A DNA stretch of 60,200 nt, the filler included, from Circinaria calcarea (lineage: Eukaryota), in assembly GCA_051942165.1 (NCBI GenBank). It is 9 parts of 9 records of this genome, joined end to end, with 100 filler letters (N's around TTAATTAATTAA, not from the genome) between each part and the next. Parts side by side here need not be neighbours in the genome. Positions count along the whole stretch, not along the records: positions 53,610 to 60,200 come from JAVECS010001546.1; 8 more parts are not named here. One strand, written 5' to 3'. Position 1 is the first letter of the stretch. Each line of letters starts with the position of its first letter. Shown piece after piece: positions 51,187 through 60,200 of this stretch. The notes beneath the pieces are model-generated. The model worked only from the letters and a program-made list of their open reading frames with translations. It was not told the DNA's origin and did not search any database. Both the position numbers and the translations under genes were made by a program.

Positions 51187-53509
51187 ATGGTCAGCCGTAC
51201 TAAGAAGTCGACGAAGAAATTCGAGAAAAATCATCTAAAGGATACCATTGACCGGCGCAAGGAATTTGCAAAGATCAAGCAAAGACAGCAGATTAAGGTG
51301 AAGAAGAGGGCTAGACATGCAAGCGATTATGCCAAAGCCTCGGACGATGAGGAAAAGGAGGAAGTCGCGAAAGCCAATGGCCGAGAGGAGAAAAGGAATA
51401 CCTTGAAGGACATGACGGTGGACGAGTTCTTTCAGGGTGGATTCGAGATCCCCGAACCGAAGAAGCAATCGGAAAAGTCACGTAAGGCGAAGGACGTTCA
51501 ATCGATGCCGGGGAAGCGCAAACGAGAGATGTTACATGCGGAGGATATGGAGGAGTCTGAGTCTGAATCCAGTGTCAACATGAAGGAATTTGGAGAAAGC
51601 CTTGCATCGGGATCTGAAGCAGAGGAAGACACAGCTGCACACAAAGAGGACCTAGACGCTTTGGCGGTAAAGGATCCGGAATTCTACAAATATCTGCAGG
51701 AGAATGATGCAGAATTACTGGATTTCGCAGAAGATGGTGATCTGGCTGAAGTTGATGATTTGGGTGAGGCGGAAGAGTTACCCAAGAAGAAACGGAAGAA
51801 GTCCAAGGCTGCCGAAGAAGCCAAGATTGAAACTGAGGATGAGACGGATGTTACGATGGCTACTTTGACCAAATGGAAGGTTGCAATGGTGGAGCAGCAT
51901 TCGTTACGAGCTATGCGACAAGTTGTTCTGGCATTCAGGGCAGCTGCCCACGTCAACGAGGAAGATGGAAAAGAATACAGGTATTCTATCTCCAGCCCCG
52001 AAGTCTACCATCAGCTACTAGTTACTGCACTTCAACACGTACCGAAAGTTTTGGGGCATCATCTTCCTGTCAAAGAATCAGCTTCGGGCAAGGTACGGGT
52101 CTCTACGGAATCAAAAAAGTACCGAACTCTGACACCATTGCTCAAATCTCACGCCGCATCTGTACAACACCTTCTCGAGAATCTTTCGGATGCTCCAACC
52201 TTGAAGTTAACCCTCTCATCCATACTGCCTTTACTTCCCTACCTTTTGTCCTTCAAAAAGGCCTTGAAGAATCTTCTCAAAGCCATCGTCGGTATCTGGT
52301 CAGATCCATCCAGCACTGAAGCCACCCGCATCACGGCTTTCCTTCTGATCCGTCGTCTGGCCATCATCAGTGACTCTTCTCTTCGTGAAGCCGTGCTCAA
52401 AACCGCCTATCAAGGTCTAATCAAAGGCTCTCGCTCAACGACCATTCACACATCTCCCGGTATTAATTTAATGAAAAACTCTGCCGCGGAACTCTGGGGC
52501 ATCGACCCTTCCATCGGCTACACAACTGGCTTTGGCTACATTCGCCAATTGGCCATTCATCTCCGCACCACCATCACCCAACCAACAAAGGATTCTTACA
52601 AAGCAATCTACAATTGGCAATACACGCACTCCCTCGACTTTTGGTCCCGCGTCCTCTCAACCCATTGCTCGACCGCTACCAATCCCCTCTTAAAATCTCC
52701 TACCGATTCTCCCCTCCACCCTCTCATCTACCCCCTCGTACAAATCACCTTGGGCTCTCTCCGACTTATACCAACACCAATATACTTTCCTCTCCGCTTC
52801 CACCTCACCCGTTCCCTTCTCCGCATTTCACGATCCACAACTACCTATATCCCTCTCGCGCCTTCTCTCCTGGAAGTACTCCAAAGTGCCGAGATGAAAA
52901 AGGTCCCAAAACCCAGTACGCTTCGGCCTCTCGACTTTCGAACCATCCTCCATACCCCGAAATCCTATCTCCGAACACGTGTCTACCAAGATGGCGTTGG
53001 CGAACAAGTTTCAGAACTCCTGGCGGAATTCTTCGGTGTCTGGGCCAAAAATATCGCATTCCCAGAACTCATCATCCCGCCCTCCGTCATGCTAAAACGC
53101 TGGCTGAAAACTCAATCTCACCCCTCTGCTCTTTCCGCATCCTCTTCCTTCAAAGGCAAAGGTAAAAAACGCCACCGCACACCCAACACCCGCCTTCACA
53201 CCTCTCTCACGCTCCTCCTTTCCAAACTCAACGCCAATGCAGCGTTTGTGGAATCCCATCGCCGGAAGGTTGACTTTGCGGTTAGTAATCGTGCAGGCGT
53301 GGAGGGGTTTCTAAAGGAGATTCAGGGGGAGGATATGCCGCTTGGGGCGTTTTTGGTCGGGGTGAGGAAGTTGAGGGAGGAGCGGGAGAGGCTGTTGGAG
53401 GAGGGGAGGAGAGAGGAGCGGGAACGGAGATATGATGGGCAAGGGAGTGAAGAGGGGGAGGAGATGGATGAGGATGAGGATGGGAATGAAGACGAATGGG
53501 ATAGTGAAG
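51187..53509 (+). CDS. NOC2: Nucleolar complex protein 2, 3' truncated in the acidic tail
   Basis: KKSTKKFEKNHLK; MTVDEFFQGGFE; KDPEFYKYLQENDAELLDF; INLMKNSAAEL; FGYIRQLAIHLR; YNWQYTHSLDFWSRVL; YFPLRFH; IAFPEL. Confidence 0.97.
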
Positions 53510-53609
53510 NNNNNNNNNNNNNNNNNNNNNNNNNNNNNNNNNNNNNNNNNNNNTTAATTAATTAANNNNNNNNNNNNNNNNNNNNNNNNNNNNNNNNNNN
53601 NNNNNNNNN
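53510..53609. other. Artificial contig spacer
   Basis: N44-TTAATTAATTAA-N44. Confidence 0.99.
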
Positions 53610-55615
53610 GGTGCCTTTGGGTGAGGGGGTGGATTCGGTGGGTGGGGTTTCTGTTTGCTCCTTTGGGCGGGATTCTTCGCGTGGAAGACTTCTTTTGCGG
53701 AAAGGCCCTGGGGGGGTTGGAGGGCCTTTTACAGTTGGGAGCTTTTCGTCCTGTAAAGGGCTCTCCGGACGTCGGCGAGACTCTTCGCGTATTCCACGTG
53801 CTAATGTTATAGGTACTCCCTTGCCTACAATACTTTCTCTATGTGGACGGAATTCCTCACTTGCGTCGCCTTTGATGGCTGCGGGCTCTCTTTTGTCTCT
53901 GGTGTCTTCTGTGCGTGTAGTGTCTGCTTTGGGGTTACGGCCTTCTCTGCCGGGGCGGCTCTCCTCGCGTAGACGGCCTCCTTCCCTCATGGTATCTTCT
54001 TCATCTGGGGTTCTTTCTTTGGCAGAAAGGCCCTCTTTGGGTTTACGATCTTCTGCGGCTGTACGGTCTTCTCTGCGTGGACGACTTTCTTTGGTTGTGA
54101 TGCTTTCCATGCTCGTAGATGCCTCTTTGCTCAGGACTGGTTCTATGCTCGGACCCCCTTCTATTACGCCGATCGCTGCTTTACTTGGAGTTGCTTTTTC
54201 GCTCGCGGTCCCTTTCTTGGGTGAAGCTGCCTTTGCAGGGGCTTCCTTCGTTGGAGTTTCCTTTCTAGGGGCTCCTTTGCTTATGGCCTCTTGTCCGCTC
54301 GTGGGTCCTTCTTGAGGTGTCTTTCCTTTACTTTCAGCACTGTCGGCTCGTTCCTGCAACTTCTTTTTTGCCGCAATAATCAGTGGAGGATCCGGAATGC
54401 CTCGAGCAAAGGGGGATATTCCTGGGGCCGTATTCTTTAACAAGTTTGGGGTGAATGATTCCCTTACAGATGTCTCCTTTGCAGATTTCCCCTCCGTGGA
54501 TGTTTCCTTTGCAGTTGTCGTCTTCACCGGGACTTCCTTTGCGAGGGTTTCCTTGGAAGGGTCTTCTTCAATGAAGACTTCCTTGGAGGGAGCTCTCTTC
54601 ACCGCATCGGCTTGTTCTTTCAGTCTGTTCTTTGCTGCTACAATCAACGGGGGATCTGGAATGCCTCGAGCAAAGGGTGATATTCGTGGGATAAGATTTT
54701 GCTGTTCCTCGGAAGCAGGAGGATCATTCACAGATACCTTCTTTGTGGTGGCATCCTTCGCAGGACCTTCATCCGCCGGGGCTTCTTTTGCATTGCCTGG
54801 AGCTGCGACGCCACGTCTCGTTGGAGCACGCTTAGCCCTTCGAGTGCCGCTGATTCCGAACTTTTCGGTAGCTCCATTTCCTTCCAGGTCGAATCGAACC
54901 TTTGGATTAGTGGGTTTCTCCGAAAGTTCAAGACCGGCGTTCCTAGCTATTGCGATGGCTCGCTCTCTCCTCGCGGTAGCTCGCTCCATCCTCGCTGCGG
55001 CTTCGTCTTCTGCCGCGGTTGTCTCCTCCGCAGCGCCTCGAATTCCTCTCATAGAATCTTTCCGCTGCACGTCGCGCAGAGCTTGAATTACATCGGCACT
55101 TCCTTCGGCATCGATTGCGTCTTGTATCAACTTCGCGCGTGCTCTTTCTGCAACCGATCTTCTGGCAATCTTCTCTCTGTCGTTCATACCCTCCTCGACA
55201 GCTTCCCTGGCGGGTTTGTACACTGGGGCTGTGTGCTGGATAATGGTGCTGGAAACGGCGAATTTATATTTCATGGGATCTTTGGTATCATTTTTCAGGT
55301 CCTCCAGGATCAACTCCTGTTTCTGGAGTTAGGTTTTTCTTCCGGTTGAGACGGAAAGGAAACAAAGCATACAATAACCTGGTCATTCCATCCCTGGCAC
55401 TTATCGTGCAAGTATCCCGGCACGAGTTCAAAAGTCGCCTCGCATGCCTGGTAACGGATTCGAGTTAGAAAGGATCCATCAAAGCGCAATCTACTCTAGT
55501 CTGGGGAACATACATTAGAAACAATCTCGTACAGACGCCCTGAGTCAAGTGGTAGGGTGTCCCGCCGAGGACCCTTACGATTAGAGGGCGGATACCACGT
55601 ACGATAGGGTATCAT
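53610..55615 (-). CDS. Tctex-1-type dynein light chain homologue followed by a very long low-complexity insertion/extension, 3' truncated
   Basis: Exons 55615-55514, 55447-55373 and 55322-53610 are joined in frame by canonical introns. They give PLDSGRLYEIVSN|ACEATFELVPGYLHDKCQGWNDQVI|..LILEDLK..KYKFAVSSTIIQH, which matches the N-terminal half of fungal Tctex-1. Confidence 0.72.
54340..54683 (-). repeat. Internal duplicated coding segment (ISPFARGIPDPPLI.AAK..L.E.AD), 2 copies 88 aa apart
   Basis: Near-identical peptides at about 54604-54683 and 54340-54419. Confidence 0.9.
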
Positions 55616-56254
55616 AGTATCGGATTGGATAAAGGATTTGAGAGTACAAGTACGCCCAAAAGCACGAAACAGTACGGAGAATATCGTATGTATATTCTCA
55701 CAGCTTTCTTTGTTCACCGGATGTGAGTCTTGCTCCTAATTTTCATTCCGGACTTGCGAACAGCTTTGTCTCTTTGTTCGCCGGATCCGGAAATCAACGC
55801 CAAGATCGATTCGGAGCAAGGTACCTTTTTCTAGAAGTCGAGAGTTGAAAGTAGACTGCTCGATGTAACCGCTAGAATCAGATGGCAGCCTCGTGAAGAA
55901 TGTCAGGATAGGGGGTGATAGCAGCATTTTTGAACTTCCCAGAGTGCTCCTCCTGCATACCATGGAAAAGAGTTCATTTGTATACCTACCAGTGAAGCCG
56001 ACCGCAAAATTCTGAATGACAAGTTTGAGCCTTGCTTGGGCTGTATATGGCTGCAGGTCAAAGGAAGTTTCGGTTTCCAAGTCCTCGCATTTCAAGGGGA
56101 TTGTTCAAACGGCCATTACGGTCGCCTCAAGTGGCCTATTGCCCTTATCGCCTTCCACATGCGACCATCCACCTTTCGGTGAACACCTTCAGTTTTATAG
56201 ATCGGAGACAATCGTTCGATTGCGCGGCTCTAGACTCCATGTAATTATCATTGA

Positions 56255-58216
56255 CTATACGTACACGTTTCCGTTCTCGTCTATATAATAACCCTCTTTG
56301 GTGATATATGAGGATTGAAAACGCTCGTTCCCACTTTCCTCATCAGAACTCTCACTCCCATTTTCCTCAACAGAACCATCATTCATGTGTGAAAGAGGAT
56401 ACCCCGTACCATCATCTCCGTCATGACTCGCCTCTGTAAACGAAATCAGACGCCCCGTCTGATCTTCCTCGTAGTCCATGGCGTCCGAATCGCTCTCCTC
56501 GATCAGAATCGGCTGCTCCCTTGATCCAAGGTCATCGCCGGTATCCATTGGCATCGTCTCATCTTCTTCGTAGTCCCTGCCGACGTAAATCGGACTGTCT
56601 TCCACATTATATCGCATGCCGACAAAGAGAGGACTGTCTTCTCCATCACTAATCGGCTCAGTTGATCCTCGTCGAGAGCCCGGTGAGCCCGGAACTACCG
56701 CTTGGATTTCCTCTTCAGGTGGACCCGTTATCCCAAGGCTATTGTTCTCTATGTCGGTCATTGATGCAGTTAAGCCCTGGCCATGGCCCGGAGATGCTGC
56801 GCAACTCTGCAGTTCAGGTGCACCGCTTACCTCGGGACTTTTCCCTTCTTTATCTGTTGACTCTTCACTTGACCCTTGATAGCCACCCGTGCTCTCTATC
56901 ACTTCTTGTATCGGATCTTGACCATCGTCCGGATCGGACACTGAGCTATCTTCTTTTTCGACTTTTTGATAAAGTCGCCCGGTCATGTCCCCTGGCAAGT
57001 CTTCCTCGCTCCAGTTGTACTGGTCCCACATGTCTGTCCAGCTGAGAATATCTTCTCCGGTATAATCCGTATCGTTCCTTAGCTTTTCGGGGAAAAAGGT
57101 GAATCTGGAGTATTCTCGTTGTACTCCTACTGTCTTTGGGATATGTAATAGCTTTGGGTCCTCGGATGAGCTCCATCGATCCCAGGTATTTTGTCGGACC
57201 AGTCGGGAGAGCCACTTCATTGGGACGTAGTAAAGTCTAAGGCTTAGCGGTGCAGCATCTCTGGCAAAATTCATTTGATTCTGTGGATCGTATTCGTCCT
57301 CTTGTGTCCACACATATGTGTAGTGATAGGGTCTAGGGAAACGACTCACGTCAAGTGGCCATTCCAACTTCTTATCCAACTCGGATACAATGCCACCAAA
57401 TACCTCGTCTTCCCAGGCGTAGCCGAGTTCATTAACCCCTTGGTGTTTGTAGAAGGGTTCAACGGTATCCAGCGGTGTAACAGCATAATGTACGGCATGG
57501 ATCAATTCGTGGCATATAGTCGTGGCCAAAACCAACTGTAAGCGAAGCATCTGGTTGCGAACTTGACAACTCTGAGGCTTCCCGTGAACTTTTAAAAGGG
57601 GACGGTAATGAACATCGCTGATTACAATGCTAGAGCTACTGCCCATATTGATTCCGTTGGTTCCATTGAATTGCATATCTGGCTTACCCTTGGCATAAGT
57701 CTGCCCGTAGGATCCTTGGCTTTTCCAGAGCGGATCCCTAATATTCCCCCAATTAAAACGGACGTGAGGGACAAGTTCGGATAACCCTTTCTCGAACTCT
57801 TCCCTTATTCGTGCCGTTGGAGGCTGAGAGTCCCGTAGAACAGATATGTGTTTCTTGTGACGTTGAGAAAGCTCGCTCTGGTAATCCTGACGTCCATACA
57901 TGAGAGCATGGACGAAGGCGACACTTCCAGGGCTTAGCAGTAATGCTGTGGCTAGTCGGAGAATTGGTACCATCGCTTCATCGTCCTCTTTAGTCCAGGG
58001 TCCTCGAACAACCTTGGAAAACGGTTGGCGCCACTTGGGTATGTCTAGAATGGAATGGATTGGACCCTTCAGATTATTGGGGCGTGCCTTGGCGTACTCT
58101 ACAAGCCCTAGATCGTAAAGATCCTCGATAGAGTACCCGCCGGGAAACTTGAACCCTTCAGCTTTATATCGAGCGGCGAGATTACTCTCGGAACTTGATT
58201 CGTTAGTTGACATCAT
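56255..58216 (-). CDS. Uncharacterised intronless protein with a HExxH (zincin-like) motif and acidic disordered C-terminus
   Basis: LATTICHELIHAVH..EPFY...ELGYAWEDEVFGG; PILRLATALL; the last about 230 aa are D/E/S-rich. Confidence 0.8.
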   Translation of the reverse strand: MMSTNESSSESNLAARYKAEGFKFPGGYSIEDLYDLGLVEYAKARPNNLKGPIHSILDIPKWRQPFSKVVRGPWTKEDDEAMVPILRLATALLLSPGSVAFVHALMYGRQDYQSELSQRHKKHISVLRDSQPPTARIREEFEKGLSELVPHVRFNWGNIRDPLWKSQGSYGQTYAKGKPDMQFNGTNGINMGSSSSIVISDVHYRPLLKVHGKPQSCQVRNQMLRLQLVLATTICHELIHAVHYAVTPLDTVEPFYKHQGVNELGYAWEDEVFGGIVSELDKKLEWPLDVSRFPRPYHYTYVWTQEDEYDPQNQMNFARDAAPLSLRLYYVPMKWLSRLVRQNTWDRWSSSEDPKLLHIPKTVGVQREYSRFTFFPEKLRNDTDYTGEDILSWTDMWDQYNWSEEDLPGDMTGRLYQKVEKEDSSVSDPDDGQDPIQEVIESTGGYQGSSEESTDKEGKSPEVSGAPELQSCAASPGHGQGLTASMTDIENNSLGITGPPEEEIQAVVPGSPGSRRGSTEPISDGEDSPLFVGMRYNVEDSPIYVGRDYEEDETMPMDTGDDLGSREQPILIEESDSDAMDYEEDQTGRLISFTEASHDGDDGTGYPLSHMNDGSVEENGSESSDEESGNERFQSSYITKEGYYIDENGNVYV

Positions 58217-58882
58217 ATTTAATGAGTATATGGGGTCCGAGAAGAACTATATTCAAGCATATTGCAGGTCTACATATTTATGCAACAGGGAACAAAGACT
58301 ACCATTATTGAAACGGCATTTTTCTTTATCAATGGCGAGACTGAATGATAGTTTGCACAAAGAATGAAACACATCGGCAAGATGTTTTTGATAGCATAAA
58401 CTCGTACGGTATCTAAAGAGAAGGCGATCATTAGCCCGCGCATCTGGTGGGCAACCTTCCTCATGATAAGTAGCCGTCTGCTCGGACAGCTGCGCCTTTT
58501 GGCATTCCACCATCTCACGACGAGGCTCTCTTATCACATGTTATGAAACATGCTTGCAATTGATCCTTTTGACTATTCAATGCTCTGCGTTACCAGGCGA
58601 GCTCAGTAAGCGTGGAACCTTCTGACAGGCTCTCACCCTTTCTAGATATGAACTTTCTGCCATCCGGATAAGCCCTGTTGTGACCGAACAGCAAAGGTGT
58701 ACCTGAGTAGACTATAGCGGTTGTCAGTTCTCAGCGGTAACAGTAATTCAGACTTTGTGGAGTTTTCATCTATGCGGTAAATCCCACGCCCTAAATATAA
58801 GACATTCAAAGATAACAAACCAGCCGTGAAGGCTAGCTACCCGAAGGCTTTTTCTTGTGTACCACCAGCGCTTTCATTGTTC

Positions 58883-60200
58883 TCATTTCCGCTTCCGCTT
58901 CTCCTCTCTGATAGCATCAATCCATTGTCCAACGCTCTTAATTGCGCCATCGGGGTCTTTCTTGTGCCCAAGTAAATACCCTTGGATCTCTGCAGGCGTG
59001 AACTCCCCCGATGGCAAAAGATCAGCAAAGTTTGTCGCCAATCTGTGAATGTCTTCCTCTGATTTTCCATGGGTACGCTGACGAATCCTGCCCTGATTTG
59101 ATGAGACGGTTTGCTTTAGGGGGTTTGCGGTTCTGTTAGCTTGATGCGAAACTGTGGTGCCATTCATCTTGACGTCTTTTAAAGAGCTGTCTGCGTCGAG
59201 ACTAACGTAGACCGCTTTGTATAGCCCGCGGATGGTTGTATGATCTGCATAGCCAAAATCTATGGTCATGTCAACGCGGCCTGGTCGCAAAAGAGCAGTG
59301 TCCAGTCGCTCAATGTGGTTAGTGGTCATGACGAGGATCCGCCCCTCGCCAGACGCAACGCCATCGATGATGTTTAGAAATGCGGATAGAGATATGCCAC
59401 TGGGGACAGGTGGCGGGCTGATAGCACCAACAGGTGGCGTAGTATCTTTGTTGACTTGGTCGCGTGACGTTTCGATTTTGTCCTGGGGCTCGTCGTTTCT
59501 CTTGTTCGTCAGGCCTGCAGCATCGATATCTTCAAGCAAGACAATGCATCTCCAGGGAAGGTATCGAAAGAGTGACGCGAGACTGTCTTCAGTAAGGCTG
59601 CGGGAATTCAAGCTCACCACGTAAATGCTTAGTCTCAGTAGACCGGCTACCGCGAAGCAAAGCGACGTCTTGCCTGTGCCTGGTGGACCACACAGCAAGT
59701 ATCCTCGACGGTAAGGGATGCCTCGGTTAGAATACCAGCGGCGAGTGAGGGGATGGAGGTATTCCTTGATATCGGTGATGAATGACTGCTTTTGTGCCTC
59801 GTCCAGCACAACCGTGGACAGGGGCCTTGGAGGCCGCGACAAACATCGAATCCATTCCACGTTGTCGCTGCCCGCCAGTCCGTTTCCTCGATATATCAGA
59901 GTTTTGTTCCCATCCCTCTTCACATACAACCTCTGTGCTTCTGCCAGTAGGTCTTTGATAATCTGCGGATTGCGACCGAGGCAAGAAATGTAGATGCGCT
60001 CCGAATTTGAAACGCGAAAGTTGGCCTGTTTGTCGTCTTTGACCCGGCTAAAGGTTAAGAAGTGGCCCTTGTAGCGGAAATTATGGTTTCCGTCGGATGG
60101 CGTGTAACGAAGGGGCTTCAGTCTATCCGAATTCATCAACTCGGTCCAGTACTTTTCGAAGTCCTCGCTGAGACCCGTTTCGACACTGTCATCTATCATG
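58883..60200 (-). CDS. BCS1-like AAA ATPase, 5' truncated
   Basis: LRYTPS.G.H.F.YKG; ISCLGRNP; RPLSTVVLD; WYSNRGIPYRRGYLLCGPPGTGKTS; IVLLEDID; ISLSAFLNIIDGV; MTTNH..LDTALLRPGRVD; FTPAEIQGYLL. Confidence 0.95.
   Translation of the reverse strand, partial: MIDDSVETGLSEDFEKYWTELMNSDRLKPLRYTPSDGNHNFRYKGHFLTFSRVKDDKQANFRVSNSERIYISCLGRNPQIIKDLLAEAQRLYVKRDGNKTLIYRGNGLAGSDNVEWIRCLSRPPRPLSTVVLDEAQKQSFITDIKEYLHPLTRRWYSNRGIPYRRGYLLCGPPGTGKTSLCFAVAGLLRLSIYVVSLNSRSLTEDSLASLFRYLPWRCIVLLEDIDAAGLTNKRNDEPQDKIETSRDQVNKDTTPPVGAISPPPVPSGISLSAFLNIIDGVASGEGRILVMTTNHIERLDTALLRPGRVDMTIDFGYADHTTIRGLYKAVYVSLDADSSLKDVKMNGTTVSHQANRTANPLKQTVSSNQGRIRQRTHGKSEEDIHRLATNFADLLPSGEFTPAEIQGYLLGHKKDPDGAIKSVGQWIDAIREEKRKRK

Follow-up and report, generated by a model that had tools for sequence, protein, structure and literature searches.

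Tctex-1 light chains are small proteins, of 111-184 aa in the examples compared here, and the question raised by the locus described below is what kind of protein begins like such a chain and then continues, in an unbroken reading frame, for at least 540 further residues. The gene lies on the minus strand at the low end of the contig at 53610..60200 (6591 bases) in a 60,200-nucleotide stretch of DNA (the window) from Circinaria calcarea, a lichen-forming ascomycete (Lecanoromycetes, Pertusariales, Megasporaceae). Our analysis indicates that it is probably the 5' part of a gene for a Tctex-1/DYNLT-family dynein light chain, in which the fungal loop between strand 1 and strand 2 has expanded from 16-78 to at least 540 residues.

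The initial annotation, made by reading the sequence, had interpreted the long low-complexity open reading frame (ORF) as the third exon of a spliced gene, with exons of 102 and 75 nt joined in frame by two canonical introns. This structure was confirmed, and the parts of the gene are as follows:

55514..55615, minus strand: exon 1 (102 nt, 34 aa), which carries the ATG start codon at 55615, an N-terminal extension and the beginning of Tctex helix 1 (R-L-x-E-I-V)
55448..55513, minus strand: intron 1 (66 nt), with a GTATGT donor, a CTAAC branch site and a CAG acceptor
55373..55447, minus strand: exon 2 (75 nt, 25 aa), which completes helix 1, carries the Y-x-H and W-N signatures and opens helix 2
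55317..55372, minus strand: intron 2, with a GTATGC donor, a CTAAC branch site and two in-frame AG acceptors (55323 or 55317)
55233..55316, minus strand: first part of exon 3, with the remainder of helix 2 and beta strand 1 (K-Y-K-F-A-V-S-S-T-I-I-Q-H)
53610..55232, minus strand: the insert, which continues the frame past strand 1 for at least 540 aa and stays open until the last base of the contig

The join between exons 1 and 2 restores the signature R-L-x-E-I-x-x-x-A-C and is gapless against a fungal profile. The frame of exon 3 is open from 55322 to 53610, giving 570 translated residues (571 counting the last codon), whereas the longest ORF in 500 shuffles of 1712 nt had a mean length of 148 aa and a maximum of 277 aa. 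The remaining sense frames of the exon 3 stretch contain 27 and 18 stops. The long frame reported initially is thus real, although its length of 583 aa was approximate and should read 570-571 codons, since the ORF listing, at 588 aa, holds intron-derived codons and X's from the adjoining artificial spacer. Similarly, a giant extra sequence does follow the STIIQH strand, but the figure of >550 aa given for it was too high, as the residues counted from this strand to the contig end number 540 (541 with the last codon). On the antisense strand over 53611-55322, one frame has 2 stops in 1.7 kb, and ORFs of 256 and 249 aa occur; we attribute these to the repetitive, purine-rich nature of the sense strand and do not take them for a gene.

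The public model of the gene, P0004, is a protein of 557 aa named 'MAG: hypothetical protein Q9187_006052, partial [Circinaria calcarea]' (MAG, metagenome-assembled genome). Its junctions are identical to those of the initial annotation, with the intron 2 acceptor at 55323, and it stops 73 codons short of the contig end, at a weak GTAGGC site. The two possible acceptors were compared using a home-made profile, A2, built from 8 short fungal Tctex-1 proteins. With acceptor 55317, the spliced N-terminus scored 77.9 bits against A2 and aligned without gaps; with acceptor 55323 the score was 73.8 bits, and the alignment had to accommodate K-Q as two extra residues within helix 2. The AlphaFold2 model of P0004, which has the 55323 junction, shows helix 2 broken at residues 60-63, into 48-59 and 64-71. 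Thus, homology supports both introns and mildly favours acceptor 55317, and the intron 2 acceptor of the public model is probably misplaced by 6 nt. A 39-aa fragment from a Logan assembly (P0006) is 70% identical to the exon 1 part, over residues 1-37, and continues into an intron at the same position as exon 1 here.

The N-terminal half had been recognized as Tctex-1/DYNLT-like, and this identification held up in profile and structure searches. A search with the Tctex-1 family profile, the check initially proposed, gave a match of PF03645 to P0004 residues 28-90 at 24.0 bits (E 4.8e-5), with a gathering cut-off of 22.8 bits; none of the three exons searched separately gave any Pfam family at E <=10. 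In a six-frame scan of the window, A2 scored 25.0 bits on exon 2 alone and 29.8 bits on exon 3 alone, and no other region of the window exceeded 5.1 bits. A HMMER search of 1.84 billion representatives gave 10 matches at E <=0.001. Eight of these are fungal Tctex-1 proteins of 134-184 aa, confined to P0004 residues 16-120 and 35-44% identical to its N-terminal half, and five of the eight belong to lichen fungi or to MAGs from lichens (Lasallia, Pleopsidium, Physcia, Peltula, Watsoniomyces). The closest structures in the PDB were 5hxl_A (E 5.4e-9) and 5hyc_A (E 6.5e-9), both over P0004 21-99, and the His of the Y-x-H signature is aligned identically between P0004 and 5hxl_A. The N-terminal half carries the fungal signatures R-L-x-E-I, A-C, Y-x-H, W-N and K-(F/Y)-x-V-x-S-T-I-I-Q-H, and AlphaFold2 predicted its Tctex helices, at 25-40, 48-59 and 64-71, with a predicted local distance difference test score (pLDDT) of ~80.

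Both PDB matches are structures of MGG_01005, the Magnaporthe oryzae DYNLT1/3 (Tctex-1) orthologue (PDB 5HXL and 5HYC), in which the site of the insert is already occupied by a loop. In the published account (PMC5834530), residues 80-112 of MGG_01005 are described as a 33-residue loop with no visible electron density, confined to fungal orthologues and absent in the yeast, mammal and fruit-fly ones. The loop touches the intermediate-chain peptide solely by its two ends, and its deletion leaves binding of this peptide at the wild-type level by isothermal titration calorimetry. Strand 2, which follows the loop, packs on the sheet of the other subunit, and H34 and H115 are required for intermediate-chain binding in the yeast two-hybrid assay (PMC5834530).

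The present gene resembles MGG_01005 in the helix-helix-strand signature (P0004 21-99 aligned to chain 10-91) and in the location of the loop, which in the M. oryzae structures lies between strands 1 and 2 and flanks the intermediate-chain peptide. The two differ in loop length, with 33 residues in the M. oryzae protein and at least 540 here, and in the absence from MGG_01005 of three features of the present gene: an N-terminal M-I-P-Y-R extension, a helical module and a conserved, repeated motif, the last two being parts of the insert. The C-terminal half and intermediate-chain binding of MGG_01005 have been shown experimentally, whereas the present gene is known from the sequence of its N-terminal half and insert.

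A short variable loop after STIIQH in filamentous fungi had been mentioned in the initial annotation, and such a loop is indeed found, disordered and 33 residues long in MGG_01005 (PMC5834530) and of 16, 19, 21, 30, 46 and 78 residues in the six of nine short relatives in which both flanks could be located; the other three, partial or mis-modelled past the loop, were left out of the measurement. The short Tctex-1 proteins of filamentous and other lichen-forming ascomycetes (among them Lasallia pustulata KAA6410571.1, Pleopsidium flavum KAI9872782.1, Peltula sp. KAI9787800.1 and Trichodelitschia bisporula KAF2399104.1) share with P0004 the invariant alignment positions R, A, Y-x-H, W-N, K and S-x-I-x-Q-H, and the three short relatives tested (P0007, P0009 and P0015) match Pfam Tctex-1 at 65-66 bits. 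Their total length is 134-184 aa, with loops of 16-78 aa compared to the insert of at least 540 residues. The 78-aa loop of Pleopsidium shows that this site is able to grow, although it is still 7 times shorter than the present insert. Animal Tctex-1/DYNLT1 proteins, such as those of Drosophila (1YGT, 2PG1, 3FM7), belong to the same Pfam family but are ~111 aa long and without the loop region (PMC5834530); the Drosophila match to P0004 was weak (residues 34-90 to chain 21-71, E 2.1).

Public models of short lichen Tctex-1 genes were themselves often faulty past the loop. The Lasallia protein P0008 has an R/A/G-rich stretch after the loop and no strand-2 motif, and the Pleopsidium protein P0010 is partial. 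The Physcia protein P0012 lacks strands 2-3 and carries the source name 'chondroitin AC/alginate lyase' despite its Tctex-like N-terminal half.

What follows the insert can be judged from a relative, P0005, a 369-aa protein encoded by a single unspliced ORF and seen on 2 contigs (up to 19.9 kb) of an ENA metagenome assembly. It begins M-S-T-I-L-Q-H, with S-T-I-L-Q-H at residues 2-7, continues with a 317-residue insert and ends, in frame, with G-R-L-G-R-H-S ... H-W-N ... D-G-L-W ... G-F-D-V. Its last 70 residues scored 36.2 bits against A2, compared to <=5.5 bits in 1000 shuffles, and the last two strands were predicted by AlphaFold2 at 342-348 and 358-364 with pLDDT ~80. The inserts of the two proteins are homologous: BLASTP aligned them collinearly at 35% identity over P0004 84-300 (E 8e-22), and the HMMER comparison of P0005 with P0004 gave E 1.1e-24. 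P0005 therefore has strand 1 in common with the present gene, together with a 28-residue motif and a homologous insert that starts with helices. It differs in having a 317-aa insert with one copy of the motif, against at least 540 aa with two copies here, and in that its gene call lacks the spliced N-terminal exons but shows the C-terminal Tctex half that is unseen here. MAFFT aligned the C-terminal strands of P0005 to the R/E-rich end of P0004, a match that was rejected as spurious; it was absent from the BLASTP alignment, and neither P0004 nor the sequence P0001 has the strand-2 motif.

The initial annotation had left two alternatives, a split Tctex fold with a huge inserted arm or a divergent paralogue fused to a new tail. 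Since P0005 has both halves of the fold, one on either side of its insert, in a single frame, a split fold with a giant loop is favoured over a new tail, through this relative and not through the C. calcarea locus itself. Judged from the sequences, the split fold is quite likely to be the architecture of the present protein as well. The unspliced frame of P0005 also argues against an intron or a misassembly.

Word-indexed protein searches returned only the window's own NCBI protein with P0001 as the query, and only P0005 itself and P0004 with P0005. Comparison of P0005 300-369 with shorter proteins gave no candidate for a Circinaria C-terminal fragment or short paralogue. Among JGI metagenome contigs, alignment A1 gave 250 pattern matches, none of which was confirmed by tblastn, and a degenerate pattern of the motif core gave 0 matches; the ESM Atlas searched with P0004 90-320 gave no usable match. 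A look for public sequencing runs covering 53611-55700 returned none, RNA runs included. No description of a long-loop Tctex-1 came up in the literature searches on Tctex and dynein light chains of fungi, filamentous fungi and lichens.

Several observations weigh against an expanded Tctex-1 light chain. The PF03645 match covers only profile positions 2-59 of 95, and its score is 1.2 bits over the cut-off. The contig ends within the insert, so that the C-terminal half of this gene is unseen; the 540 residues after strand 1 hold no strand-2 motif (in P0004 or P0001), and the A2 scan revealed no C-terminal Tctex half on the other 8 contigs of the window. Long-form relatives in the searched databases amount to one full protein (P0005) and the 39-aa fragment P0006. 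No family was detected by Pfam in P0005, so that the recognition of its C-terminal half depends on the home-made profile of eight sequences. Two further points, the modest identity of the N-terminal half to other Tctex-1 proteins and the low predicted order of the insert, bear on particular alternatives and are taken up with them.

An identity of only 35-44% between the N-terminal half and the fungal matches means that the gene could be a paralogue departed from dynein, with a short Tctex-1 elsewhere in the genome and the Tctex fold serving as the dimerisation module of a long charged protein. The N-terminal half is indeed more diverged from the 8 fungal Tctex-1 proteins than these are from each other (38-54% to P0007), its N-terminal extension is unusual and conserved in P0006, and short forms exist in other lichen fungi (Lasallia, Pleopsidium, Physcia, Peltula). 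However, the 60 kb of the genome covered by the window yielded no second Tctex-like piece, and the putative intermediate-chain-binding His is retained in the Y-x-H of P0004, with a C-terminal counterpart in P0005. From a 3-residue tag offset, the His of Y-x-H (P0004) and that of G-R-x-G-x-H-S (P0005) would correspond to H34 and H115 of MGG_01005; the latter His is present in P0005 and is unseen in the present gene. We regard a paralogue of this kind as unlikely, and by analogy with the M. oryzae protein the scales tip slightly towards a protein that is still a dynein subunit.

The insert itself contains the following features:

54939..55181, minus strand: charged helical module (~80 residues, P0004 107-187), predicted by AlphaFold2 at the start of the insert
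54607..54690, minus strand: copy 1 of the 28-residue motif, with the core S-P-F-A-R-G-I-P-D-P-P-L-I, then a short helix
54343..54426, minus strand: copy 2 of the 28-residue motif, within a ~88-aa tandem duplication relative to P0005
54200..54789, minus strand: 15-nt (5-residue) periodic repeats of the K-E-x-x-x type, flanking the motif copies

The 570-aa frame of exon 3 is rich in A (12.3%), E (11.9%), R (9.8%), P (9.8%), K (9.6%), T (7.7%) and S (7.0%) and is devoid of W and C; the 540-residue insert carries 106 K/R and 91 D/E. Its initial description as disordered applies in part. In the AlphaFold2 model, 337 of the 557 residues of P0004 have pLDDT <50, including the distal insert, which is K/P/T/A-rich and then R/E/D-rich, but helices are predicted within 107-187 and at 284-300. 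Those of the helical module lie at P0004 107-132, 135-149 and 160-187, with block pLDDT values of 64-85 for the most part, falling to 42-57 over residues 141-160. P0005 has predicted helices at the same relative place, at 15-47 (pLDDT 80-95) and 75-122. The helix of the motif is predicted at P0004 284-300 with pLDDT 66-74.

The duplicated motif noted initially was verified as two 84-nt copies (repeat family D2) with 80% nucleotide identity, the core of the motif reading S-P-F-(A/V)-R-G-I-P-D-P-P-L-I. The 28-residue motif is near-identical in P0004 and P0005. Comparison of the two copies over 28 codons gave 12 synonymous and 6 non-synonymous differences, equivalent to a ratio of non-synonymous to synonymous rates (dN/dS) of 0.11 in a small sample; in the 13-codon core there were 5 synonymous and 0 non-synonymous differences. 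This synonymous excess is evidence, from a small sample, of a translated frame and of purifying selection on the motif. The tandem duplication is seen in a second alignment of P0004, over residues 301-493, to P0005 139-290. The periodic repeats (family D1) number 11 copies, at 54200-54294, 54476-54570 and 54740-54789, with a spacing of 15 nt. A possible third, degenerate motif core was seen by eye at 53800-53830 (minus strand; P0001 ~500-512), reading I-T-L-A-R-G-I-R-E-E against S-P-F-A-R-G-I-P-D-P. On visual inspection no T-Q-T (LC8) site was seen in the insert, and we know of no other named short linear motif that the 28-residue unit matches.

Most of the insert is of low complexity, and with so many residues at low pLDDT much of it could be functionless. 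In the extreme case the whole insert would be an inert expansion, produced by repeat slippage, in what is otherwise a plain Tctex-1. The loop was already variable in length (16-78 aa) and is dispensable for intermediate-chain binding in M. oryzae (PMC5834530), 15-nt periodic repeats and a tandem duplication occur within the insert, and the assembly broke inside it. Nevertheless, the 28-residue motif has stayed near-identical between inserts that are otherwise ~35% identical, its copies differ mainly at synonymous sites, and in both P0004 and P0005 a helical module is predicted, with fair confidence, at an equivalent position. An entirely inert insert is thus distinctly unlikely.

Another possibility is that the fold is truncated in this species, with a Tctex N-terminal half, a new tail and no strands 2-4, the gene having decayed or taken on another use. 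In its favour, the C-terminal half is not visible even though the 540 residues are more than the full insert of P0005, at 317 residues. On the other hand, the C-terminal half is kept in P0005, the frame of the present gene is open up to the last base of the contig, and two helices and one strand would be unlikely to fold on their own. Truncation is accordingly considered improbable. Finally, although the gene predictor's uncertainty, with the NCBI model ending 73 codons early at a weak GTAGGC, might suggest that the long frame is spliced out as a large intron or exitron, or that two genes were misjoined, such an artefact is very improbable given 570 open codons against a shuffle maximum of 277, introns of 50-66 nt elsewhere in this gene, the synonymous excess between the motif copies, and the homology of the insert along its length to an independent assembly in which the insert and both Tctex flanks share one unspliced frame.

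For a split Tctex-1 with a giant loop, a working arrangement can be proposed. Strands 2-4 would lie just past the contig end, and the core would still form a strand-swapped dimer and sit on the dynein intermediate chain, as in M. oryzae; binding by the core is suggested by the dispensability of the loop for binding in MGG_01005 (PMC5834530). The dimer would then have two long flexible arms leaving the core beside the intermediate-chain peptides, each arm carrying one or two motif copies and, close to its base, the charged helical module. Because of their conservation, the helical module and the motif are taken as the functional parts. The motif copies could act as docking sites for a partner, be it cargo, a regulator or the microtubule surface, and the basic K/P-rich parts could also contact the acidic microtubule surface. 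From its sequence, a docking role for the 28-residue motif is possible, at rather less than an even chance. As suggested tentatively in the initial annotation, the insert may serve as a cargo adaptor or tether.

The window consists of 9 contigs of ~6.6-6.7 kb, chained artificially through N runs around a TTAATTAATTAA linker. The linker occurs 8 times, at ~6.7-kb spacing, compared to 0 occurrences in 100 shuffles. Its presence at the 8 joints shows that the window is a chain of contigs, and the sequence below 53610 is thus unrelated to the Tctex gene. The artificial features are:

6654, 13359, 20062, 26765, 33468, 40165, 46860 and 53554: contig joints; anything that appears to span them is artificial
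53510..53609, no strand: artificial spacer (N's around TTAATTAATTAA), non-genomic, marking the contig end that cuts the Tctex gene

On the neighbouring contig, 51187-53511 (plus strand) encodes an unrelated Noc2p-family protein (397 bits), with an acidic C-terminus that reaches into the spacer. Upstream of the Tctex gene on its own contig, 56255-58246 (minus strand) holds an ORF of 653-663 aa whose product has an HExxH-like motif (H-E-L-I-H) and ends in a long, acidic tail rich in S/D/E; it matched 0 Pfam families at E <=0.001. Beyond it, 58886-60199 (minus strand) encodes a BCS1-like mitochondrial AAA ATPase (Pfam BCS1_N 113 bits, AAA 65 bits, AAA_lid_BCS1 49 bits), the frame of which is still open where the contig stops on its high side.

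Fungal proteins commonly have large disordered inserts in their surface loops, and the role of Tctex-1 light chains in dynein beyond stabilising the intermediate chain is still debated. The value of the present case is limited in that two long-form proteins are known, one of them truncated, from uncultured or hard-to-handle lichen material. For annotation, the loop is a point at which Tctex-1 gene models tend to break, and the public model here is partial. The fungal-specific disordered loop between strands 1 and 2 is already in print (PMC5834530), while loops grown to 317 and at least 540 residues, with a helical module and the conserved, duplicated motif, did not come up in the literature searches or, beyond these two proteins, in the protein databases searched. 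A loop grown more than tenfold and carrying a selected motif would show that this loop is able to evolve a function of its own, and the 28-residue motif would provide a concrete peptide for partner searches. It is a tentative and somewhat doubtful proposal that a lichen-fungal lineage has turned the dispensable Tctex-1 loop into a built-in adaptor, with two arms of at least 540 residues per dynein, bearing a helical module and one or two copies of a new, selected 28-residue docking motif. If true, recruitment of cargo or regulators would be hard-wired in the light chain itself, rather than achieved via separate adaptor proteins.

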